Part shown: piece after piece, positions 39,995-51,738 of the stretch
Layout: the number at the start of each line of letters is the position of its first letter
Position numbering within the stretch: position 1 is the stretch's first letter
Assembly: GCA_942493285.1 (NCBI GenBank)
Contig: OW818691.1
Span: 950,875 to 1,014,874 of the forward strand
Origin: an uncultured Myxococcia bacterium
GTDB taxonomy: Bacteria; Myxococcota_A; UBA9042; PHBI01
Length of the DNA: 64,000 bases
Direction of reading: 5' to 3'
Program-made: the position numbers and the translations under genes
Notes under the pieces: generated by a model
The model's database searches: none
Told to the model about the DNA's origin: nothing
What the model saw: only the letters and a program-made list of their open reading frames with translations

Positions 39995-41731
39995 TCATCG
40001 CATGGCCGTCAAAGAGACCGTGACGATGCGTGTGTCCGGCAGCGGGTCGAGCCGCAAAGCCTCTGGGCGATGGTCCGGGTGGACGAGCAGGACCGCCACC
40101 GGGGCATCGAGGTCGAGAGCGAGTGGTGTCTGACCGCGGAGTCGACCGTCAGCGAAGACGTTCGCCCCCTGGGGTTGTGACTGCAGGTAGACGCGTGGTG
40201 CGCGTGCCACACCGTCGGCGGTGACACTTGCGCGGGCCGGAGCTGCGGTCGGACGAATTGGGGCGGCTGGGTCGCCGGGCGTCGCGCTTGCCCTGTTGGC
40301 GGCGGCCGCGAGCGGCGGGACGTCGGCATATCGCTCTTGCGGTGGGGCGGGGTGGTGGTCCAAACGCGGCGTGATGCTTGCCGTGGGCTTCACGACCTCG
40401 GCGACGCGAGCTGAGACAACCCGTGGGGCTGGCGGGGCCTTCGTAATAGGCGTGGCTACGCTTGTGGCTCCGACGTTGGTAGCGGTGAGCGTGGCCGTCA
40501 TCGCCCCGGGGCTGGCTGTGGGCGCCGGAGCTTTCGGCGTCACGGCGACTGGTTCGGCTTCGGACCCAGAGGCGGGCGATGGTGCTTCGATGGGCGGCGA
40601 AGGTCGGGTGCTGGGAGCGACGCCTGCGACCCTGTCGGCCTTCGTGACGCTTGGGACGGTCGATGGGGGAGGAGGTGCCAGGGCAACGATCTGCTGCCCG
40701 TCGAGGTCGGACCCGAGGGGACCGAGGACCCCGACCAGCACGAGTCCGAGTGCAGCGCCCGCGAAGAAGGCGAGCCGGCTTCTGCGCCGGGCCGGACGCG
40801 GAGTCGTTGGGGCCGTCGTCGCGTTGGCCGGCCGCGCCGACGGGTACGTGGACAGGTTGGTCACGGCGGTTGGTGAAAGCGGCGCGACGCTGGGTGCCGG
40901 GACCACGGCGCCGGGTGTTGGGACCAGGCCCAGCGGAGGCTCAGCGCACACAACCTCCTCGGGTTTGTCGGTGACGACGAGGCGCGACGAGATGATGACC
41001 TTTGGAACAGGCTCGGCCGGGGCCTCGAGCCTCGGCGGAGACGGCCTGACTCCTTCGAAGGTGCCGCTGACGGCCATGTTCCGACCGTCTCCCACGAATA
41101 CGACCGCCGTCGGTGGGGCTTCTCGGACGACGCGTCGGCGGGATCGGCGACGCAGCTGACCTTCATCGACCAGCGGAAACGCGGGCATGGGCGGTGGCGG
41201 GAGGTGATCGAGCTCGGGCGGTGGAGCGGCCGTCTGCACTGCATCGGGCTCGTCGGGTGGCAGGGCAGGGGGGCTCGCCACATCCTCGACGGTCGCCCCG
41301 TACGGGTCGACGAACCACTCCAGGTCGGCCTCGTCCATCGTGTCCACTTCAGGAGTCGTCGTGGGCACGGTTGGTGCTGCTTCGAGAGTCGTCGTGGGCA
41401 CGGTTGGTGCTGCTTCGAGAGTCGTCGTGGGGACGGTTGGTGCTGCTTCGAGAGTCGTCGTGGGGACGGTCGGTGCCACTTCGAGCGTCGCAGTGGGCAC
41501 GGTCGTCGCCACATCGAGAGTCGCAGTGGGCACGGTCGGTGCTGCTTCGAGAGTCGTCGTGGGTACGGTCGTCGCCACTTCGAGAGTCGCAGTGGACACG
41601 TTCGGTGTCACTTCGAGGGTCGTCGTGGGCACGGTCGTTCGTTCCGCCCGGGCATCCGGAGAGGCTTCGGGTGCCAGGCTCGGCACGGCCTGGACGGCGG
41701 TCCTGGGCTTTCGTTTGCGCTTCGTGGTCAT
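39995..41731 (-). CDS. Single-pass membrane protein with N-terminal Thr-rich 11-aa repeats and C-terminal PEGA domain
   Basis: GGAGG SD; TM LAFFAGAALGLVLVGVLG; PEGA LQSQPQGANVFADGRLRGQTPL. Confidence 0.8.
   Translation of the reverse strand: MTTKRKRKPRTAVQAVPSLAPEASPDARAERTTVPTTTLEVTPNVSTATLEVATTVPTTTLEAAPTVPTATLDVATTVPTATLEVAPTVPTTTLEAAPTVPTTTLEAAPTVPTTTLEAAPTVPTTTPEVDTMDEADLEWFVDPYGATVEDVASPPALPPDEPDAVQTAAPPPELDHLPPPPMPAFPLVDEGQLRRRSRRRVVREAPPTAVVFVGDGRNMAVSGTFEGVRPSPPRLEAPAEPVPKVIISSRLVVTDKPEEVVCAEPPLGLVPTPGAVVPAPSVAPLSPTAVTNLSTYPSARPANATTAPTTPRPARRRSRLAFFAGAALGLVLVGVLGPLGSDLDGQQIVALAPPPPSTVPSVTKADRVAGVAPSTRPSPPIEAPSPASGSEAEPVAVTPKAPAPTASPGAMTATLTATNVGATSVATPITKAPPAPRVVSARVAEVVKPTASITPRLDHHPAPPQERYADVPPLAAAANRASATPGDPAAPIRPTAAPARASVTADGVARAPRVYLQSQPQGANVFADGRLRGQTPLALDLDAPVAVLLVHPDHRPEALRLDPLPDTRIVTVSLTAMR
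41345..41635. repeat. About 9 tandem 33-bp repeats encoding TVPT(T/A)TLE(A/V)A(P/T)
   Basis: gtcgtcgtgggcacggttggtgctgcttcgaga and close variants, head to tail without spacers. Confidence 0.9.
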
Positions 41732-41749
41732 GTCACACCTCCCCTGGGC

Positions 41750-43594
41750 TCACTTGGTTGCTTTGGTGCGAATCACCTGATTCTGGATGGGCTTGCCGTC
41801 GATCTCGAGGATGTTGAACTCGACACGGCGATTCTGGTCGCGGCCTTCCTCGGTGTCATTCGTGTCGATCGGGAAGTCGAAGCCATATCCCTTGGCGATG
41901 AAGCGGCTTGCCGTGACACCCTTGCTCACTAGGTATTTTGTGACAGCTTTGGCGCGCCGGTCCGACAATCCGAGGTTGTAGGCGCGGGTGCCGATGCGGT
42001 CGGTGTGGCCTTCGACACGCACGAGAGTGATATTCGGGTTGTCGTTCAGGATGCTGGCGACGACATCGAGCAGGGGGTAGCTGCGGTCCTGCAGGGTGGC
42101 TTTGTTGAAGTCGAAATAGACACGCTCGAGGATCTTGATGGCCGTTTCGGTCAGGATTGCCCTGGGCTTCTCGTCGGGGCATCCATCCTCGTCCTCCCAC
42201 TCGTTGATCGTCTCGGGTTGGTCGCGGCAGGTCCCGAAGCCGGCGTTGTCGGCGGGGCCGTCGGCGACATCGAGAATGCCGTCGCCGTCGTTGTCGACGT
42301 CGGGGCAACCGTCCCCGTCTTCGAAGCCGTCCTTGTCTTCGGGCGCATTGCGGCAGGCACCGAATCCGGATGCGTCGAGAATGCCGTCGGTCGCGTCTGG
42401 GATGCCGTCAGCGTCATTGTCCAGGTCGGGGCAGCCATCCGCGTCTTCGAAACCGTCGACGTCCTCGGCGGTGTCGCGGCATCTGCCAAACCCCGATCCG
42501 TCGTCAGCCCCATCGGTCACATCGAGCACCCCGTCGCCGTCATTATCGGGTTCGGGGCAGCCATCGCTGTCCTCGAATCCGTCGTAGTCCTCCGGGTCGA
42601 GCGGGCACTTGTCGTCGGGGTCGAGGAGGCCGTCGCCGTCTGTGTCCCGCTTCCGGTCGACCGCGCTGTACCCGATGGAGAGCGCCGCTCGGAAGTCCGG
42701 CGACCCTACGCCTGAGGTCAGGCCCGCGCCGGCGGCGACGTTGCCACCCCAGTTGTCGTCGAACCAGAACTGGATTCCGCCGAGTGCCTCGGCCGGCGCC
42801 GTATTGTTTGCGCTGATGTCGACCTCCTCGCCGACCCCGACCGCACCGTAAGCGACGCCGATGAGGGCGAGGTGGTCCTCGACCAGCGGGATTTCGACGC
42901 CCAGGCCCCAGCGAAGGGCGTTGGTATTGATGAAGTTCAGGACCTGCTGCCGGCTACGCGCCATGAACCCGAGATTGGCGCTCACCGAGAAGCCACCGCG
43001 CGTCTGATACTCGAGGACGAGCCGCGGCTCGATGCGCACACTGCCCTCCGAGTGGTAGCTTCCGGAATCGCCTGTGGGCAGGTGGATTGGAGCCATGAGT
43101 GCCAGGCCAAAGCCGCCGAAGTCGCGAGAATCGAGGATCCTGACCTTGGGCACGATCCGCAGGTCACCCGTGGTGAACGAGTTGAACTCCTGCGGTGTCT
43201 CGGAATCGAAATCCAGGTCGGTGGCACTCTGAGCCAGAATCAGCGGCATCACAAAGCCGATGTCGATGACGTCGAAGAGCCCGAGACCAAACCAGACCTC
43301 GCCCTTCAGGACGTAGTCGACGATGCGCCGCTCTATCTGCTCCGGGTCTTCGGCAAAGACCAGATTCAGGGGGTCGTCCTGGTAGTGGAAGACGAGCCCG
43401 AACGACGGGGTCAGGTGCCGCGTCACGTCGGAGCGGCCGATGTTCAGGATGTTCGTTCCAAGGCCGGGCAGGGGCTCGAACTGTTCGATAGCGAAGCTGC
43501 GGTCTGGGTCCTCCTGCGCCCTGACGCTCGTCGAGGGGACGAGACCGAGCACCGAGGTGGCAAGAGATGCGGTGAGTAGTGAGGTGGTCTTCAT
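41750..43594 (-). CDS. OmpA-family outer-membrane protein: N-terminal beta-barrel, 4 thrombospondin type-3 repeats, OmpA C-terminal domain (TraB-like architecture)
   Basis: Signal peptide; alternating beta-strands; DxDGDGxxD...DGCP repeats; VEGHTD...YNLGLSDRRAKAV, NRRVEF. Start moved to ATG 43594. Confidence 0.9.
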   Translation of the reverse strand: MKTTSLLTASLATSVLGLVPSTSVRAQEDPDRSFAIEQFEPLPGLGTNILNIGRSDVTRHLTPSFGLVFHYQDDPLNLVFAEDPEQIERRIVDYVLKGEVWFGLGLFDVIDIGFVMPLILAQSATDLDFDSETPQEFNSFTTGDLRIVPKVRILDSRDFGGFGLALMAPIHLPTGDSGSYHSEGSVRIEPRLVLEYQTRGGFSVSANLGFMARSRQQVLNFINTNALRWGLGVEIPLVEDHLALIGVAYGAVGVGEEVDISANNTAPAEALGGIQFWFDDNWGGNVAAGAGLTSGVGSPDFRAALSIGYSAVDRKRDTDGDGLLDPDDKCPLDPEDYDGFEDSDGCPEPDNDGDGVLDVTDGADDGSGFGRCRDTAEDVDGFEDADGCPDLDNDADGIPDATDGILDASGFGACRNAPEDKDGFEDGDGCPDVDNDGDGILDVADGPADNAGFGTCRDQPETINEWEDEDGCPDEKPRAILTETAIKILERVYFDFNKATLQDRSYPLLDVVASILNDNPNITLVRVEGHTDRIGTRAYNLGLSDRRAKAVTKYLVSKGVTASRFIAKGYGFDFPIDTNDTEEGRDQNRRVEFNILEIDGKPIQNQVIRTKATK

Positions 43595-43729
43595 GGAGCG
43601 TTCTCTTGATGAATGGCATATTGGCGAAACAGGGAGCTTGCGGACCCGCAACGAGGCCTCGACCGCTTGCCGCGGTCATGCCCTCGCAGTGGGAGCCGTC
43701 GTCGCGGGAGCACGAGTGGAGAAAAGGGT

Positions 43730-43785
43730 CGACATGACCTCGAGCGATGACGGCCGTCACGCGAATATCGGTCGAGGTCATGTCG
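43730..43785. other. Nested palindrome: 14-bp perfect inverted repeat enclosing a 12-bp palindrome
   Basis: CGACATGACCTCGA / TCGAGGTCATGTCG around TGACGGCCGTCA (43748-43759). Confidence 0.75.
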
Positions 43786-43985
43786 GAGCAGCGAGACACC
43801 GATGTCCAGGCGCCAGGGGAAATGTCTGCTCGCCACGTCGCAGGCCAGCGGCGGAGCGGGCCGTAGCGTGCGCGAGCGACGTCAAAAGCGAAGGGGCATA
43901 TGATCTCGTGCGTGCGAACAGGGCGTTGGCGGTGGCGCCTCACCCAGCCTCGCGTTCACGAGGCCGGGCGAGAACAGTCGCTGAA

Positions 43986-46900
43986 TCAGACGCGGTGGCT
44001 GCGGCGGCGGAGCATGCCGACCAGCATGAGGGCCAGCCCCACGAGTGCGAAGTCTTGAATGCCACCGCCGGTACAGGTCGGTCCGCCGGTCACGCGCATC
44101 TGCTTGGGCTCGCTCAGGATACCGACAGTCGCCGTGCCGGTGTTGCATGCGTCGTGCACGTCGCACACCGTGTACTCGAGCAGGTCTTCACCGACGAGGT
44201 CCGCACCGGCCTGGTAGCGGATATCGCCATTCTCCTCGAGAGTGACAGTGCCCAGAGGCGCGTCGTTCGTGATGCGGACACGGGTAATCCGCAGCACATC
44301 GCCATCGGCATCGGTGTCGTTGGCGAGGACGTCGAGGACGGTCGTGCTGTCAGGCATGACCACGAACATGTCGTCGTTCGCTTCCGGGGCCCGGTTCGTC
44401 TCGGTCGGGACGGTCGCGGTGACGGTGAGCGTGACGCTCGCGGTGGCACATTGCTGCATCGAGTCGCAGGCGTCGTAATAGAAGACGTCGAGCCCCACAA
44501 ACCCAGCCGAGGGTGTGTACCGGAGGGCACTTCCAATGCGGACGACTGCGCCATTGGTCGGAACCGTGAAGGCACCGAGGGTCAGGGTCACTCCCACGGT
44601 CGCATGGCTGTCGTTGGCCAGGACGTCGACGAGGACCGACGTGTCTTGTTCGAGCGAGGCGGTGTCAGCCATGGCATTCGGAGTGCCGACATTCCCCGTG
44701 TCGACCTCGATCGTGACATCGGCTTCGTCGCAAGCGCCGGACGGGTCACACACCTCGTATCTCACCGTCACCTGGCCGCGGAATCCGCGTGGGGCCGAGT
44801 ACACCAGGAGGTCGCGGTCGATTGACGCGCCGCCCTGGTCCTCGAGCGGCTGCAGGACTATCGCGGTGAGTGTCAGGGCGTCGCCGTCGGGGTCCGTGTC
44901 ATTGCCAAGGACGGTGATGGAGGTGGATGAGCCAGGGTTGACACGCGCACCATCGTCGACCGCCACGGGGGCGTCGTTGACCGGAAGAACCGTCACGAGG
45001 ACGTCACCTTCGGCGCACTCTCCGCGGGCGTCACAGGCGACGTAGACGAAGTTGTCCTCGCCGAAGTAGTTCGCCGCCGGGACATAACGCGCGAGCCCGC
45101 TGCCGACGACCTGGACCGAACCATTCTGCGGGAGGACGGCGAAGCTCGAGATCGTCAGGGCATCACCATCCGGGTCGCTGTCGTTGGCGAGTACATCGAT
45201 ATCGACGACGGTGTCCTCGTCGAGCTCGACGTCGTCATCGGCGACAATCGGCGTGGTGTTGGACGGCTCGACCACCGTGATGTCCACCCGCGCCAACGCG
45301 AAGCCACCGCGGCCATCGCTGATACGGTAGGCGAACGAGTCGCGACCGACGAAGCCATCGTTCATCCGCACGACGAGGAGCTGCGCGTCGGCGTCTTCGG
45401 GGAGCTCACCCGCGACGAAGAGGGCGGTGCCGTTCGACGGTTGCTGAACCTCCACGATGGTGAGCGGGTCGGAGTCGGGGTCCGAGTCGTTCGCCAGTAC
45501 ATCGAGAATGCCCTCGGCGCCGAGCTCGAGGACGAGCGTATCATCGACTGCGACGGGAGCCGTGTTGGCACTCTCGAGGACGATCACACGCACCGTGCTT
45601 GTCGCGGTCAGGCCCTCCGGGTCGGCGATCTCGACTGCGAAGATGTCCTCGCCGACATAGGCTGCCGAAGGTGTGTAGGTGACGAGATTGCCATCGCCCG
45701 GTTCGGTGCTGCCGAACTCCGGCATGGACACGAATGTGACCGTGAGGTCGCCACCTTCGGGGTCGATGTCGTTGCTGGTCGGGTCGAAATCGACGGCGGT
45801 GTCGACCAGCGTCGTGACGAGGTCGGCGAATGCCAGCGGCGGGGCATTGAGGCCTGCTCCAACCGAGACAGTGACGGTTGCGGCGCCGCATCGGCCATCG
45901 GCCGTGCAAGCGGCGTATCGGAAGGTGTCCTCGCCGGTGAAGCCGAGCGCTGGCACATAGGACAAGCCCTGCGCGTCGAGAGCCACAAAGCCGTGGGCGC
46001 CGTTGCTCCACGTGGCCACCATCAGACCGAGTCCGGCGGGGCCGACGTCGTTCGCGAGGACATCGATGGCGACGCGCACACCCGACGTGGTCTCGGCCGC
46101 GTCGTCGTTGACGTTCGGCATCTGAGGCGCCTGGCCCTCACCGACGATGATGGTGAGCAGTGCACTCTCGCAGGCCATTTCCGGGTCGCAGGCCATGTAG
46201 GTGATAGACACGGTGGTATCCGGATCCGCGCTGGCAGGTGCGAACTCGACATTGCCGTCGTCGTCGATGGTCGCGGTGCCGGAGCCGTTCGCGACGAGGA
46301 GCTGTGTCACGACGAGGCTATCGCCGTCGCGGTCGACATCATTGTCGAGGACGTCGACTGCGACGGTGGTTTCGGCCGGGGTCTGAGCGAAGTCATCGAA
46401 GGCGTTGGGGGCGTCATTGACCGGAGTGACCTCGACCCGAACGGTACCGACATCGCACGCACCGAGCTCGTCGCAGACCTCGTAGCTGAAGAAGTCGAGG
46501 CCGAAAAAGTCGTCCATCGGCACATAGAGGACGGTTCCATCGGTCAGCATGGAGGCCGCGCCAAAGAGCGGTTGCGCAGAGATGGCACGAGGTGTCAGGG
46601 CCTGGCCGTCGGAGTCGGTATCGTTGGTGGCCACGACGATGAGAACCCTTGTGTCTTCAGGAGTCAGCGCTGCATCATCGAAGGCGACAGGTGGCGCATT
46701 GACCGGGCCACAGTTCCCGCGGACACCGTCGGCACACTCGACGCAGTGATTCGATGAATCGCACACCAGGCCATCCTCACAATCGGGGTCGACCGTGCAC
46801 TCTTCGCAGCGGGCCGCGGTAGCGGTCTCGTCGCATGCGGGAGCCTCGAGGCCGCACCCGGAATCGACATCGCCGACGGTGTCGTCGATGCAGGTGGTGC

Positions 46901-49205
46901 AAATCGAGTCATCACCCGAGCCCTCGCAGAGCGGCTGCTCGGGAGTGCAGCCCGCATCGACCTCGCTCCCCGTGTCGAGGCAATCGACACAGGTGTTCGT
47001 CGTGGGGTTGCAGACCTGATCGCCATCACAATCGGCGTCGAGCGTGCACTCGACACACTCGCCCGCGCCGGTTGTGCCGGAGCCGACATGGCACGCCGGC
47101 AGGACCTCGTCGCAGCCCTCGTCGACTCCACCGGAGACCGTGTCCTCGCAGACCACGCATGTGTTGGTGGTGGGATCGCAGACCTGATCGCCATCACAAT
47201 CGGCGTCGAGCGTGCACTCGACACACTCGCCGGCGCCGGTTGTGCCGGAGCCGACATGGCACGCCGGCAGGACCTCGTCACATCCGGCGTCGATTCCGCC
47301 AGAGACGGTGTCGTCGCAAGTGACGCAGCGGTTGTCTGCGCCGCAGATCGGCGGTCGGCAATTGCCATGGGTGGCACATGGGTCGACGTTGATCTCGATT
47401 GGAGCCACGAGGCAGTTCGTGAGCAATCCACCGATGTCCACACAAGCCTGGACGTAGCAGGTGACCTGGCCGTAGACCTCGGTGGTGGAGATGACGCGGA
47501 TATTGCCATCGAGGTCGATTTCGCATTGGGCGAGGTCGGCTTCGACATCCAGAAGGGCCGACTCGGAGAAGGGGCCGGTCAGGGTGGCCGACACATTCAA
47601 CGAGTCGATGAGCGCATTTGCGGCGAGGCCCAGCGAGGCGAGGACGAGGTCGCGGTCGATGAGGCCGGTCTCGCCGAGGTCGAGGTCGAGCAGCGGGAAA
47701 CGCGGCGTGCAGTCGGCGTCCTCGAGGCACTCGACGCACGAGCCGCCGTCGCAGGCGGGAACGTCGCCGTCGCAGCCGCGGTCGATGGAGCCTGCGGAGG
47801 CAGTGTCCGCGCATGAGGCGCAGGTCGAGTCGTCGAGGCACACCGGGGCGATATTGCAGGTATTGGAGAGCACACACGCGTTCACGTCGACATCGAGTGG
47901 GGCGGTGACGCAGGTCTCGACGGTCTGGCCGAGCAGCGTCGTGCACACCTGGATATAGCAGGTGACCTGGGCTTCGACCGCGTTGGCCGTGATGGTGATG
48001 TCGCCGTTGGCGCCGACCGCGCAGTTGGCGACCGCGACGTCGGCACCGAGGACAGCTTCGTCGCTGAACGGGGTGTCGAGGCGTGAGGATACCGCGACAT
48101 TGGACGGCAGGAGCGCGGTCGAAAGGCGCAGGAATTCGAGGACCTCGGCGAGTCCGACCGTGACCTGTTGGCCTGGGCCGAGGAGCGTCGAAAGCAGGCT
48201 CGCTTCGCAGTCGGCGTCGGCGGCGCAGGCCACACATGATGCACCGCTTTCGTCGACGTGGCAGGACGGCGAGCCCGAGTTGCAGCCGGAGTCGATGAGG
48301 CCGGGGCCGCGGTCGTCGCGACAGGCGACACACGCGTGGGTCGCGGTGTCGCAGGTGGCGACCGGGTTGCAGGTGCCGCCGACGAGACAGAGGTCGACTA
48401 GGATGTCGAGCGGGGCGGTCGTGCAGATGCCGAGCAGGGGGACACACGCGCGCACATAGCAGGTGTGGACCTGGGCATCGGCGTTGGCGCCGGCGACGAC
48501 TTCGACGCGGTCGTCGGTGGTCACGGTGCAGGCGACGTCGCTGCCGACGAGGGCTTCGTCGGTGAACGGGCCGTTGACGTCGGCGCTGACCTGGACGTCC
48601 GTCAGGAGGGCCGTGGCGCTGACGCCGAGGAGGTTGCGCAGGAGGTCGTCGGTGACCCGCACGACCTGGCCGACGGTGGCTGCGACAAAGCCAGAGGCGG
48701 CGCCGCAGTGGGTGTCGTCCGTGCAGCCGACGCAGGTCGGCTCGGCGGCGTCATCGCAGGCCGGGGCGGCGCTGGTGCAGCCGCGGTCGATGGCGTCGTT
48801 GCCGGCTTCGCAAGCGACGGAGCGCAGGGGGTAGGTCGTCTGCTGGCAGATCGTGATGAGGCCAAGTGTGACGGTGCAGGCGCGAGCGTGGCAGGTGGCG
48901 GAGGCGGCCGGGCCCTGGCCTGCTTCGAAGACGAGGTTGTTGTTGTCGGTGCGGCAGGTCAGGCGGCCGTCTCCGGTGAGATCCGCAGAGGCGGCCCATG
49001 GGCCGGCGGCGGCGGCGGAGACGGTGACCGTGGTGTTCACGCCGGGGACGACGCCGAGGATCTGGAGAAGCGTCGCGAAGGGGACCGACTCGTCCGTGCC
49101 AAAGACGAGGTCATTGGGTGAGGCCTGGGCGTTCGCTGTGGATGAGTGGAAGGCTGTGAGCGTTGCGCACAGCCCGACGATGAGACCGGTAGTTCTCGTA
49201 AACAC
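43986..49205 (-). CDS. Large surface adhesin: four copies of an unrecognised ~100-aa domain, Cys-rich repeats, 9 cadherin-like Ig (Big_9-type) repeats, MYXO-CTERM-like tail
   Basis: Signal peptide from GTG 49205 (GGGGAAG upstream); CVxCxxDxxC repeats; N-x-P-x-A-x-DD...DVLAND-x-D-x-DG repeats; tail GGPTCTGGG...ALVGLALMLVGMLRRR. Confidence 0.88.
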   Translation of the reverse strand: MFTRTTGLIVGLCATLTAFHSSTANAQASPNDLVFGTDESVPFATLLQILGVVPGVNTTVTVSAAAAGPWAASADLTGDGRLTCRTDNNNLVFEAGQGPAASATCHARACTVTLGLITICQQTTYPLRSVACEAGNDAIDRGCTSAAPACDDAAEPTCVGCTDDTHCGAASGFVAATVGQVVRVTDDLLRNLLGVSATALLTDVQVSADVNGPFTDEALVGSDVACTVTTDDRVEVVAGANADAQVHTCYVRACVPLLGICTTAPLDILVDLCLVGGTCNPVATCDTATHACVACRDDRGPGLIDSGCNSGSPSCHVDESGASCVACAADADCEASLLSTLLGPGQQVTVGLAEVLEFLRLSTALLPSNVAVSSRLDTPFSDEAVLGADVAVANCAVGANGDITITANAVEAQVTCYIQVCTTLLGQTVETCVTAPLDVDVNACVLSNTCNIAPVCLDDSTCASCADTASAGSIDRGCDGDVPACDGGSCVECLEDADCTPRFPLLDLDLGETGLIDRDLVLASLGLAANALIDSLNVSATLTGPFSESALLDVEADLAQCEIDLDGNIRVISTTEVYGQVTCYVQACVDIGGLLTNCLVAPIEINVDPCATHGNCRPPICGADNRCVTCDDTVSGGIDAGCDEVLPACHVGSGTTGAGECVECTLDADCDGDQVCDPTTNTCVVCEDTVSGGVDEGCDEVLPACHVGSGTTGAGECVECTLDADCDGDQVCNPTTNTCVDCLDTGSEVDAGCTPEQPLCEGSGDDSICTTCIDDTVGDVDSGCGLEAPACDETATAARCEECTVDPDCEDGLVCDSSNHCVECADGVRGNCGPVNAPPVAFDDAALTPEDTRVLIVVATNDTDSDGQALTPRAISAQPLFGAASMLTDGTVLYVPMDDFFGLDFFSYEVCDELGACDVGTVRVEVTPVNDAPNAFDDFAQTPAETTVAVDVLDNDVDRDGDSLVVTQLLVANGSGTATIDDDGNVEFAPASADPDTTVSITYMACDPEMACESALLTIIVGEGQAPQMPNVNDDAAETTSGVRVAIDVLANDVGPAGLGLMVATWSNGAHGFVALDAQGLSYVPALGFTGEDTFRYAACTADGRCGAATVTVSVGAGLNAPPLAFADLVTTLVDTAVDFDPTSNDIDPEGGDLTVTFVSMPEFGSTEPGDGNLVTYTPSAAYVGEDIFAVEIADPEGLTATSTVRVIVLESANTAPVAVDDTLVLELGAEGILDVLANDSDPDSDPLTIVEVQQPSNGTALFVAGELPEDADAQLLVVRMNDGFVGRDSFAYRISDGRGGFALARVDITVVEPSNTTPIVADDDVELDEDTVVDIDVLANDSDPDGDALTISSFAVLPQNGSVQVVGSGLARYVPAANYFGEDNFVYVACDARGECAEGDVLVTVLPVNDAPVAVDDGARVNPGSSTSITVLGNDTDPDGDALTLTAIVLQPLEDQGGASIDRDLLVYSAPRGFRGQVTVRYEVCDPSGACDEADVTIEVDTGNVGTPNAMADTASLEQDTSVLVDVLANDSHATVGVTLTLGAFTVPTNGAVVRIGSALRYTPSAGFVGLDVFYYDACDSMQQCATASVTLTVTATVPTETNRAPEANDDMFVVMPDSTTVLDVLANDTDADGDVLRITRVRITNDAPLGTVTLEENGDIRYQAGADLVGEDLLEYTVCDVHDACNTGTATVGILSEPKQMRVTGGPTCTGGGIQDFALVGLALMLVGMLRRRSHRV

Positions 49206-49347
49206 GTTTCTTCCCCGCTTTTGGACGGTTGGGTGGGTGAACGGCTCTTCCATCCGATTGGGGCGGATGGCGGAGCCACCTGGGGGGGCACGTGGGCGAG
49301 TGAGCAAAGGTCGGGCCAAAACGCCGGCCGGCTTTAGGTGTCTGAAA

Positions 49348-49430
49348 AGTATAGGCTTTTTGGATCTTGCGGGCGAAGTTCGGACAGTTTTTCCGGTAAA
49401 GGATGCTGAACGGATCGGGAAGTTTTGCCG
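49348..49430 (-). promoter_or_regulatory. Candidate adhesin promoter (-10 TATACT) with two upstream 16-bp direct repeats
   Basis: TATACT at 49353-49348; CGGCAAAACTTCCCGA and CGGAAAAACTGTCCGA (13/16 identical), 35 bp apart. Confidence 0.4.
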
Positions 49431-49606
49431 AGGTTTTCGGACGGACTCGGGTGTTGGGCTCGAAGAGAAGGCGCATGTCCGCCGAGCCTCCCGGGCCAGA
49501 CCTTTCGGCATTTGTTTGGCCCTCTGTCCTTGCCAGTGCGGGCGAGGCGCTTCACTCTCTTCGTATGACAGGCGCACCACACCCCGCGCCTGCCGGGAGC
49601 TCGATC

Positions 49607-49909
49607 ATGCGCAAGTCCAATGCGTCGACGACTGAGGACTACGAGGCCACCAAGACCCAGCCGCCGAAGCCCGGGCATGGGGGTGACGACGATGCGCCGA
49701 TCTCGACCGCCGGTGAGGCTTCCGAGGTGAGGACCGGGCCGCGTGAGCTGCCGGATACACAGGAAGGACTCTACTCCGACAACTGGGCCTATCGGGTCGA
49801 CGAGAACGAGGGTGAGGGGGAGCTGCACGCCGACCCGGAGGAGCTCGCGGCCGAGCTCGATGGGCTGGAGATCAGGACGGAGAAGGAGATGCGGCGCACC
49901 GTGAACTGA
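49607..49909 (+). CDS. Small acidic hypothetical protein (100 aa)
   Basis: GGGAG SD, typical GC3 bias; start moved to ATG 49607. Confidence 0.55.
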   Translation: MRKSNASTTEDYEATKTQPPKPGHGGDDDAPISTAGEASEVRTGPRELPDTQEGLYSDNWAYRVDENEGEGELHADPEELAAELDGLEIRTEKEMRRTVN

Positions 49910-49936
49910 GGTTGCGCGCGTAGTGTCCGAGCGTCG

Positions 49937-50743
49937 TCAGCGTCCGAGTGACTCGGGCTGGAAGATGGCGTCGGGGAAACGCGCGTCCGGGTTCTGGGCA
50001 GTGATGTCCAGGGTCGTCTGGGTCGACTGGACGAGGTCGGTCATGACGAGACGCGAGGGGACGAGGCGCTTGTCGGGGCCGATACGCGCGACGCGTTTGA
50101 CCTCCAGTCGGCGGACTGCAGCGAGCCCGTTTGTGGTCTGGCGCTCGAAGTCGAGTCGCACGGGGAGGAGACCGTCTTTCAGGATCCAGGCGGTCACCCG
50201 CGAGAACCCGCCGGGCGCCCGGGTGCCGGGCTTCGGGGTGATGGCGAGTCGGTAGCAGGGCTGGCCGCCGAGGTTCTCGTCGGGCAGGCCGGCGATCTCG
50301 GCGTTGTCGAAGTCGCGTTTCTCGAAGTCGGCGAATGAGAAGTCCGAGCCGCCAAGCCGCCCTTCGCGATCGTCCGGGGTGACGCGGCGCAGCTCGGCGC
50401 TCTTGGGAAGCCAGAGGTACTGGAGCGGAGGCGCGCCGCGTTTCTCGACGAGCAGGTACTCGATGCCGCGCTGGTCGATGGGCTCGAGAAAGGAGAGGCG
50501 CATCTTGCGTGTGCCGTCGGCGATGGCCGAGCGGGCTTCGAGCTTGCGTGAGATGAGGCGCCCCGCTTTGTCGCGCAGCTCCATGCCGAGCGTAGCGCTG
50601 CCGGCGCCGAAGCCCAGGCGATCGCCGCCGAGCGCGGACTCGGCGATGTCGCGTGGGGTGGGCTCGGCGCGGGCCGAGGCGGACCAGGCGAGGGTCAAGG
50701 CCAGGGCGAGGCGGGCGGCGTGGCGTCGGGCGGAGGCGGGCAT
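49937..50743 (-). CDS. Outer-membrane lipoprotein-sorting protein (LolA-like fold)
   Basis: Signal peptide; FLEPIDQRG...L; QYLWLP...RRV; GGSDFSFADF; ENLGGQPCYRL. Start moved to ATG 50743. Confidence 0.85.
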   Translation of the reverse strand: MPASARRHAARLALALTLAWSASARAEPTPRDIAESALGGDRLGFGAGSATLGMELRDKAGRLISRKLEARSAIADGTRKMRLSFLEPIDQRGIEYLLVEKRGAPPLQYLWLPKSAELRRVTPDDREGRLGGSDFSFADFEKRDFDNAEIAGLPDENLGGQPCYRLAITPKPGTRAPGGFSRVTAWILKDGLLPVRLDFERQTTNGLAAVRRLEVKRVARIGPDKRLVPSRLVMTDLVQSTQTTLDITAQNPDARFPDAIFQPESLGR

Positions 50744-50886
50744 GCACGGCCTTTGGGGGCGGAGGAGCTGGGGGCCGCACCAGAGGCGGGCGTAAAATGA
50801 AATACGAAATGTCCCGACCCCTATTCCAGGACCCCGGTGAAGATGGGGCGAGACAGGGCTGGATTCGTGGGGCCATCCTGTCGACA

Positions 50887-51738
50887 ATGCAACCCGTGGT
50901 GACGTTTCGAAGATGGTGGTGGGGGACGGTGGCGGGGCTCGTGGCGGCGCCGGCGGCCTTCGCATGGGTGGCCTACCGCTCCGAGAGCGGTGCGGTCCTG
51001 CGTTGGACCGAGCCGGACGTGGTGATCGCTCTGAGCCCGCCGCCCGGTGCCTTGGATCGAGGCGCGACGCGTGCGGCCCTGGACTGGGGGGTTGCTCAGT
51101 GGGCGGAGCTCGATTGCGACGGACCGGTCGTGACGATTCGGGAGGTCGGGGCGACGGTGCTGGATGCCGAGGACGCCCAGAGCTCGGTGGTTTGGATCGA
51201 CGACGTCGCGGTATGGAACCAGCGGTTCTCGGCGACGGAGCTGGCGCGCACCATCCTCATCTATCGTGTGCAGTCGGGGCGGATGGTGGACGCGGACATC
51301 GCGGTCAACCTCGGAGGCTTCGACTTCTCGGCGAGTGAGAGCTGTGATGCTGAACGTTACGATTTGTGGATGACGCTCACCCACGAGCTCGGGCACTTCT
51401 TTGGGCTCGACCACAGCTTGGCAGATGGGGCCACGATGCAGGCCAAAGCGTCGCCCGGGGAGTGTCAGGGGCGAAGCCTGTCGCCCGATGACCGCGAGGG
51501 GTACTGCTCGAGCTACGACGTCCCCACACCCGTCGAGCCCGAGCCGGGGCCCGAGGTGGCCGACGTCGTCGAAGCTGCGGACATGGGCGACGTGAGCGAG
51601 GCCGAAGCGGACGGGGCGCGGCGAGACGACGGGTGTTGCGGCGCGGGCGGGTTGTCTGGGGCCGGCGCGTGGATGCTGGTGGGCCTGGGAACGGCGTTGG
51701 TGCGCGGCCTCAGGCGAGGCGCGCGTCGAGCCACCTGA
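50887..51738 (+). CDS. Matrixin (M10)-like zinc metalloprotease with MYXO-CTERM-like tail
   Basis: HELGHFFGLDH, Met-turn ATM, DDREG; tail DDGCC...AWMLVGLGTALVRGLRR. Start inferred. Confidence 0.87.
   Translation: MQPVVTFRRWWWGTVAGLVAAPAAFAWVAYRSESGAVLRWTEPDVVIALSPPPGALDRGATRAALDWGVAQWAELDCDGPVVTIREVGATVLDAEDAQSSVVWIDDVAVWNQRFSATELARTILIYRVQSGRMVDADIAVNLGGFDFSASESCDAERYDLWMTLTHELGHFFGLDHSLADGATMQAKASPGECQGRSLSPDDREGYCSSYDVPTPVEPEPGPEVADVVEAADMGDVSEAEADGARRDDGCCGAGGLSGAGAWMLVGLGTALVRGLRRGARRAT

Follow-up and report, generated by a model that had tools for sequence, protein, structure and literature searches.

The DNA considered here is a 64,000-nucleotide window from the genome of an uncultured Myxococcia bacterium (Myxococcota_A; UBA9042; PHBI01; GenBank assembly GCA_942493285.1, contig OW818691.1, positions 950,875 to 1,014,874), and its subject is a pair of adjacent genes that recalls the traAB locus of Myxococcus xanthus (models NF033759 and NF033763). 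The first gene, A (43986..49205), encodes a large surface protein with a C-terminal sorting tag, and it is followed on the same, minus strand and 391 bp further on by B (41750..43594), which encodes a protein made of a signal peptide, a beta-barrel, TSP3 repeats and an OmpA domain, the order that is also seen in M. xanthus. A preliminary description of this DNA, made from its letters, had reported the same strand and order with a gap of ~390 bp, as is borne out here, and had called the genes a TraAB-like pair. The name holds for the architecture, for the full-length homology of B to TraB and for the recurrence of the pair, which we find once elsewhere; it fails for descent, in that neither gene is an ortholog of TraA or TraB. 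What is new here is A itself, with a rare immunoglobulin (Ig)-like head domain in four copies, a partner of A from a different TraB-family clade, and the unlinked gene arrangement of an adhesin and its TraB-like partner. That A is an adhesin and B its TraB-like anchor, the two being unlinked in expression, is in our judgment an evenly balanced proposition. Positions below are those of the window and refer to the minus strand, unless a contig is named.

A was read as an open reading frame of 1,739 amino acids from a GTG start at 49205. This start is preceded by GGGGAAG, which resembles a ribosome-binding site, and it aligns with the start of the closest ortholog, P0004 on the metagenomic contig L147 (56% identity, collinear); the database protein P0003 has the same length of 1,739 amino acids. 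An alternative ATG lies upstream at 49253 and would lengthen the protein by 16 residues, to 1,755. The translation opens with a Sec signal peptide (49125..49205; …TAFHSSTANAQA/SP, ending in ANAQA) that aligns with the signal peptide of the ortholog, and it ends in a MYXO-CTERM-like sorting tail (43989..44093), read directly as GGPTCTGGG-IQDFALVGLALMLVGML-RRRSHRV, that is, a Gly-Cys motif, a transmembrane helix and an Arg cluster. The protein contains 92 Cys residues in all and six exact CxxCxxDxxC motifs, the latter within the Cys-rich region. The Cys-rich stalk of CxxCxxDxDC modules (46704..47375) was delimited by motif count and weak model matches: its repeats reach 13.9 bits on TIGR04201, below the cut-off of 25, and align weakly with the Cys repeats of NF033759, the model for TraA (19.3 bits, E 3.5e-4). 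The membrane-proximal part is occupied by nine Big_9/Cadherin_4/tandem-95 repeats (44109..46691), which match Pfam PF17963 at 489 bits in nine stretches and NCBIfam NF012211 at 314.6 bits; the cut-off of NF012211 is 90 bits, so that A clears membership in this family with its repeated units. The length of ~1740 amino acids, the signal peptide, the Cys repeats, the nine Ig repeats and the Cys-transmembrane-Arg tail had all been recognized in the preliminary description.

Like the tandem-95/Big_9 Ig-like adhesins (NF012211, PF17963), A thus has nine canonical repeats that score well above the cut-offs; unlike them, it carries these repeats in its membrane-proximal half only, the distal half being formed by a rare, unclassified Ig-like domain with interleaved Cys-rich modules. 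This half contains four head units (47214..49121, with unit borders at 48699-49121, 48207-48698, 47709-48206 and 47214-47708). In an alignment of 20 units from five proteins, each unit begins with a ~105-residue Ig-like beta-sandwich that has five invariant Cys and continues into a Cys-rich module, and an AlphaFold2 model of one unit, built from the 20 aligned units, shows an Ig-like beta-sandwich and then a small Cys-knotted module at a predicted local distance difference test score (pLDDT) of 88.1. The best PDB matches of this model are weak and comprise dystroglycan and other Ig- or cadherin-like domains of adhesion molecules (E 4e-3, template-modeling score 0.34-0.40). The head domains have no match in Pfam or NCBIfam. 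At E<=1e-3 their profile recovers no more than 21 representative proteins out of 1.84 billion, nearly all of them large, and out of 5.8 billion proteins just four show the complete head arrangement of A. A is therefore a rod built of Ig-like domains over its entire length and lacks a distinct head of the lectin type. Relatives of ~2,020 amino acids, encoded at L132 5802-11852 and L146 10001-16090, agree with A in the four head units and the sorting tail, contain extra Cys-rich modules, and probably form a sister subfamily to A.

With TraA, A shares only generic features, namely the signal peptide, Cys-rich modules of the CxxCxxDxxC type and the Cys/transmembrane/Arg tail. Unlike TraA, it is devoid of the PA14-like variable domain, is built instead of nine Big_9 repeats and of four Ig-like units that are novel, and exceeds TraA in length about 2.5-fold. 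Profile searches with Pfam and NCBIfam found neither a PA14 domain nor a TraA N-terminal domain in A, in keeping with the earlier remark that no PA14-like head could be recognized, and the variable domain TIGR04566 has no match in A or anywhere else in the whole genome, whereas true TraA proteins score 220-342 bits on the N-terminal model. In TraA itself, divergence is greatest in the variable domain (PMC6372800). The preliminary description had proposed allelic diversity at the N-terminus of the adhesin as a check. Between A and its L147 ortholog the head units are 58-74% identical and the Cys modules 62-73% (only five sequences were available), so that the head does not exceed the Cys modules in variability and no hypervariable head is seen. 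Membership of A in the TraA family is ruled out, given the lack of the variable domain and a head that is not hypervariable.

A has both the N-terminal signal peptide and the tripartite tail (a Gly-rich motif with an invariant Cys, a transmembrane helix and an Arg cluster) of MYXO-CTERM sorted proteins. The tails are conserved in the orthologs of A, and about 60 proteins of the 9.29-Mb genome end in the same tripartite tail. Other tails of this genome pass the cut-offs of the curated hidden Markov models TIGR03901/TIGR03382, with 21.8 bits where 20 are required and 17.1 bits where 15.85 are. MYXO-CTERM is cleaved by MrtX (PMC11980579). The sole MrtX-like CPBP protease candidate in the genome, at C1:7508892-7509974, scores 80.7 bits on NF040593 over model positions 133-231, below the cut-off of 180, and its open reading frame has the EExxxR, H and HxxxN motifs; we infer that A is sorted along this pathway. 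The candidate also carries an insert of ~150 residues before its catalytic EExxxR/H/HxxxN core.

The partner gene B encodes 614 amino acids, as established from its open reading frame and translation, Pfam, NCBIfam and AlphaFold2. A signal peptide (43517-43594) is followed by a barrel (about 42665-43462, from Pfam and the model), four TSP3-like repeats (about 42170-42652, from motifs) and an OmpA domain (about 41795-42160, from Pfam), the three parts that the preliminary description had assigned to it. Pfam places a Phenol_MetA_deg-type barrel at residues 125-294 and the OmpA domain at residues 493-589, and the repeat region holds four DxDxDGxxD and four D/E-x-D/E-GCP motifs. The AlphaFold2 model, based on 42 relatives, has a pLDDT of 85.5; its barrel counts ~12 strands, its repeat region is coil, and an OmpA fold is present as well. 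In fold searches the nearest structures to the barrel are FapF (5O65) and the COG4313 channel (4RL8), at template-modeling scores of 0.66-0.72, and the nearest to the periplasmic part is a TSP3 and OmpA fragment of the Capnocytophaga gingivalis OmpA (5WTL, E 1.7e-15). The likeness is at the level of the fold only, with 11-15% identity in the barrel, and a sequence search of the barrel against PDB gave no meaningful match. As modeled, B is a 12-stranded FapF/COG4313-like outer-membrane barrel joined to TSP3-like repeats, predicted to bind calcium, and to a peptidoglycan-binding OmpA domain.

The best NCBIfam match of B is the TraB model NF033763, at 232.9 bits, and it spans both the barrel (model positions 3-291) and the OmpA end (339-499). 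B is homologous to TraB along its full length and shares its architecture of signal peptide, barrel, TSP3 and OmpA. It is not a TraB ortholog, for several reasons. Its score of 233 bits compares with a curated whole-protein cut-off of 700 bits for exchanger_TraB. The genome encodes at least 11 full-length barrel-TSP3-OmpA paralogs, two others of which score similarly, at 233 and 205 bits. Among 301 sampled genomes of the phylum, orthologue-grade scores of 550-612 bits occur in only two genomes, from other classes and families, and these two loci are real traAB operons, in which the upstream protein scores 220-342 bits on the TraA N-terminal model and overlaps traB by 4 bp. The description of the present organism as a distant lineage was a fair one, as in this sample true traAB operons were found only in other classes of the phylum.

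The placement of B in trees agrees with its score. In an 86-sequence tree B stands beside a stand-alone paralog of its own genome and the orthologs of that paralog in two metagenome-assembled genomes of the same genus, with 99% support in the Shimodaira-Hasegawa-like approximate likelihood-ratio test (SH-aLRT), while true TraB is placed elsewhere, nearer to other paralogs; this tree has a weak backbone. A topology constrained to join the B clade to TraB is worse by 39 log-likelihood units and borderline in the approximately unbiased test (p 0.05, 31-row set). The preliminary description had named a grouping of the OmpA protein with generic OmpA-TSP3 paralogs as its first ground for refutation, and B does group with stand-alone OmpA-TSP3 paralogs; orthology to TraB is rejected on score, tree placement and operon structure. 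Relatives come from metagenome-assembled genomes of uncultured Myxococcota or "Deltaproteobacteria". The stand-alone paralog (C1:2226715-2228784) is 64.5% identical to B, and it is to this paralog and not to B that the "best hits" (65-69%) from the two genomes of the same genus are orthologous.

The gene arrangement differs from that of traAB as well. In all known orthologs traAB is an overlapping bicistronic operon (PMC6372800), whereas A and B are separated by a spacer of 391 bp (43595..43985). A GC-rich hairpin stands directly after the stop codon of A (about 43936-43966), a dispersed repeat resembling repetitive extragenic palindromic (REP) elements lies at 43818-43879, with copies throughout the genome, and a hairpin with a 14-bp stem, followed by CCCTTTTCTCC, lies at about 43728-43783. 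Because of these hairpins and the repeat in the 391-bp gap, A and B are not translationally coupled. The corresponding spacer on L147 also has a strong hairpin just past the stop codon. The REP-like element in general is an intergenic, hairpin-forming sequence of ~50-62 nucleotides (GACGTCGCTCGCGCACGCTACGGCCCGCTCCGCCGCTGGCCTGCGACGTGGCGAGC…), present at about 80 places in the genome with 89-96% identity and sometimes in tandem.

A further possibility is that the pair is a true functional analog of TraAB, in which the head of A would be a homotypic, polymorphic kin-recognition receptor and would drive outer-membrane fusion and exchange together with B. The gene order and the family of the partner are those of traAB, and A is confined to a few close lineages, between which it differs by 35-53%; both points speak for this explanation. 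Several others speak against it: the TraA variable domain is absent from protein and genome alike, the head is a series of four Ig-like repeats instead of a single distinct recognition domain, and its units vary no more than the Cys modules. B, for its part, falls outside the TraB clade and is not translationally coupled to A, whereas every known traAB pair overlaps (PMC6372800). We regard this explanation as very improbable, and kin recognition or membrane exchange by A and B is unsupported.

A more modest relationship between the two proteins is suggested by their adjacency. With ~60 tails in 9.29 Mb, a sorting-tag tail would be found by chance within 1.2 kb at a rate of roughly 0.004 per gene, and the same-strand adjacency of such a tail and a barrel-TSP3-OmpA gene, here in the order A tail and then B, is not expected by chance. 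The arrangement is also kept on L147, where an ortholog of B lies 272 bp past P0004 on the same strand and is 60% identical to B, compared with 50-52% to the paralog lineage. In a second tree B, the L147 protein and P0021 form one lineage with 99% support, distinct from the lineage of the paralog; the two members of the B lineage that are informative each have an A-lineage gene ahead of them. The contigs L149 and L133 end at this point and have no say on the pairing (L149 has only 80 bp upstream of its B-lineage gene). The pairing of A and B is thus conserved in only one other known sequence.

The association of sorting tags with barrel-TSP3-OmpA proteins extends beyond this locus. In the same genome a sorting-tag tail lies directly upstream in three of the 11 barrel-TSP3-OmpA genes, and two of the three cases are in-frame fusions (C1:3943490-3948811 and C1:2710233-2715098, single open frames of 1,773 and 1,621 amino acids), in which a surface protein with a complete GGC/transmembrane/RRR tag runs without a stop into a signal peptide and a barrel-TSP3-OmpA protein. 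A motif scan of other Myxococcota marked 12 of 71 informative loci; with the TraA tail of L117, read by eye, about 13 have an upstream tag, ~11 of them as in-frame fusions and two with the tag protein as a separate gene. A fused protein of this kind, MXAN_5598, has been described as TraA+TraB-like (Discussion, mBio 2025; PMC11980579). Like the MXAN_5598-type proteins, which join a large adhesin, an internal MYXO-CTERM, an outer-membrane barrel and OmpA, the pair in the window combines these two components and keeps their order; unlike them, it consists of separate genes with a long structured spacer, and the domains of A are unrelated to the adhesin domains of the fused proteins. On the locus L104 (G156:C24) an unfused sorting-tag protein ends ~400 nucleotides upstream of a TraB-family gene, and the spacing of A and B is therefore not unique to the window.

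The fusions, which set tag and barrel back to back, together with a barrel whose nearest folds are a polypeptide transporter (FapF) and a hydrophobic-substrate channel (COG4313), also invite the speculation that the barrel of B is the passage or insertion site for the lipidated C-terminus of A, an export or docking pore for which anchoring would be secondary. Neither FapF-type secretion nor COG4313-type uptake is known for TraB-family barrels. The outer membrane of M. xanthus is reached by TraA without TraB and by TraB without TraA, and export of MYXO-CTERM proteins needs the type II secretion system (PMC12045341, PMC11980579). Most of the ~60 sorting-tag proteins of the present genome have no barrel gene beside them. 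We think a pore of this sort improbable.

The principal alternative to an anchor is that A and B are independent neighbors, A being a self-sufficient lipid-anchored adhesin and B a general tether between outer membrane and peptidoglycan, perhaps acting with the next gene, D (39995..41731, 578 amino acids), so that their adjacency would have no functional meaning. D is a Thr/Pro-rich protein with nine TVPTTTLEAAP-like repeats, a transmembrane segment and a weak PEGA match. Most of the observations that weigh against B as a dedicated anchor of A fit this alternative. The paralogs, at least 11 in the genome, are mostly stand-alone, as is the clade closest to B, and no sorting-tag protein is found upstream of the nearest relatives of B (the 64.5% paralog of its own genome, the same-genus orthologs of this paralog, L011 and L017). 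When 80 loci with B relatives were searched by tblastn with parts of the adhesin, D and the LolA-like gene, no adhesin was found beside them. Synteny is lost on L132, from a genome of the same genus, and on L146, from another metagenome-assembled genome, where the adhesin relatives (47-51% identity) have convergent unrelated genes next to them and no OmpA partner, and the adjacency on L147 may be a matter of simple inheritance. RNA folding of the spacer, which contains the REP-like repeat, gives strong hairpins (z = -3.1), a promoter and terminator consensus scan of 41500-50100 yielded nothing useful in it, and D starts only 18 bp past B, so that B may belong to a different unit and D may be co-transcribed with it. 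On the side of sorting, the tail of A has no match to TIGR03901 at E<=10, and the CPBP candidate, at 80.7 bits, compares with an MrtX cut-off of 180. The preliminary description had named separate transcription and missing synteny as grounds for abandoning the pair; the hairpins and the L132 and L146 relatives go that way, and L147, which keeps the pair, does not.

Against mere neighborhood, the lineages of A and B are both rare and are adjacent in the only two informative cases, the chance rate of adjacency is low, as given above, and pairs of this kind are found fused repeatedly within the family. D is absent downstream of the B-lineage ortholog on L149 and from all 80 loci with B relatives, and a pairing of B with D, not being conserved beside the B lineage, is rejected here. 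We consider independent neighbors a serious possibility, and lean somewhat against it.

If B is indeed the anchor of A, the following arrangement can be proposed. A would be exported by the Sec pathway and displayed as a lipid-anchored, giant, rod-like surface adhesin with 13 Ig-like domains and Cys-knot modules. TraA and TraB of M. xanthus associate 1:1, and TraB anchors and restrains the resulting complexes by binding peptidoglycan (PMC12045341). By analogy with what TraB does for TraA, B might dock the membrane-proximal end of A and tie it mechanically to the cell wall; we infer both this physical interaction and adhesion as the function of A. The hairpin-rich spacer with its REP-like element probably ends or attenuates the transcript of A, so that the two proteins would be made in unequal or separately regulated amounts, and a fixed proportion between them would not be required.

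One may extend this anchoring role, tentatively and with much more doubt than confidence, to the proposal that TraB-family barrel/TSP3/OmpA proteins are general, dedicated outer-membrane partners of Cys-tag-sorted proteins in Myxococcota, forming a continuum from polyprotein through overlapping operon to unlinked neighbors, with A and B at the unlinked end and adhesion by the rod, cell to cell or cell to substrate, needing B. Considered alone, the locus amounts to an ordinary adhesin gene beside an ordinary envelope protein, and its components and design principle are already in the literature. If A needs B, the logic of TraA and TraB, a lipid-anchored surface protein coupled to the cell wall via a TraB-family barrel/OmpA protein, would not be special to outer-membrane exchange, and could represent a general myxobacterial way to mount large adhesins, with a genomic linkage that ranges from fused to loosely adjacent. 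This would aid the annotation of the dozens of "OmpA family" paralogs and sorting-tag proteins that each genome of the Myxococcota contains. The rare Ig-like domain family carried by the pair, moreover, lies outside all libraries.

An Rfam scan of 41500-50000 returned only chance-level microRNA matches. A further feature upstream of A, which is not conserved beside the adhesin relatives, is a LolA_like (PF17131) outer-membrane lipoprotein-sorting gene at 49937-50965 on the minus strand, ~730 bp from A.

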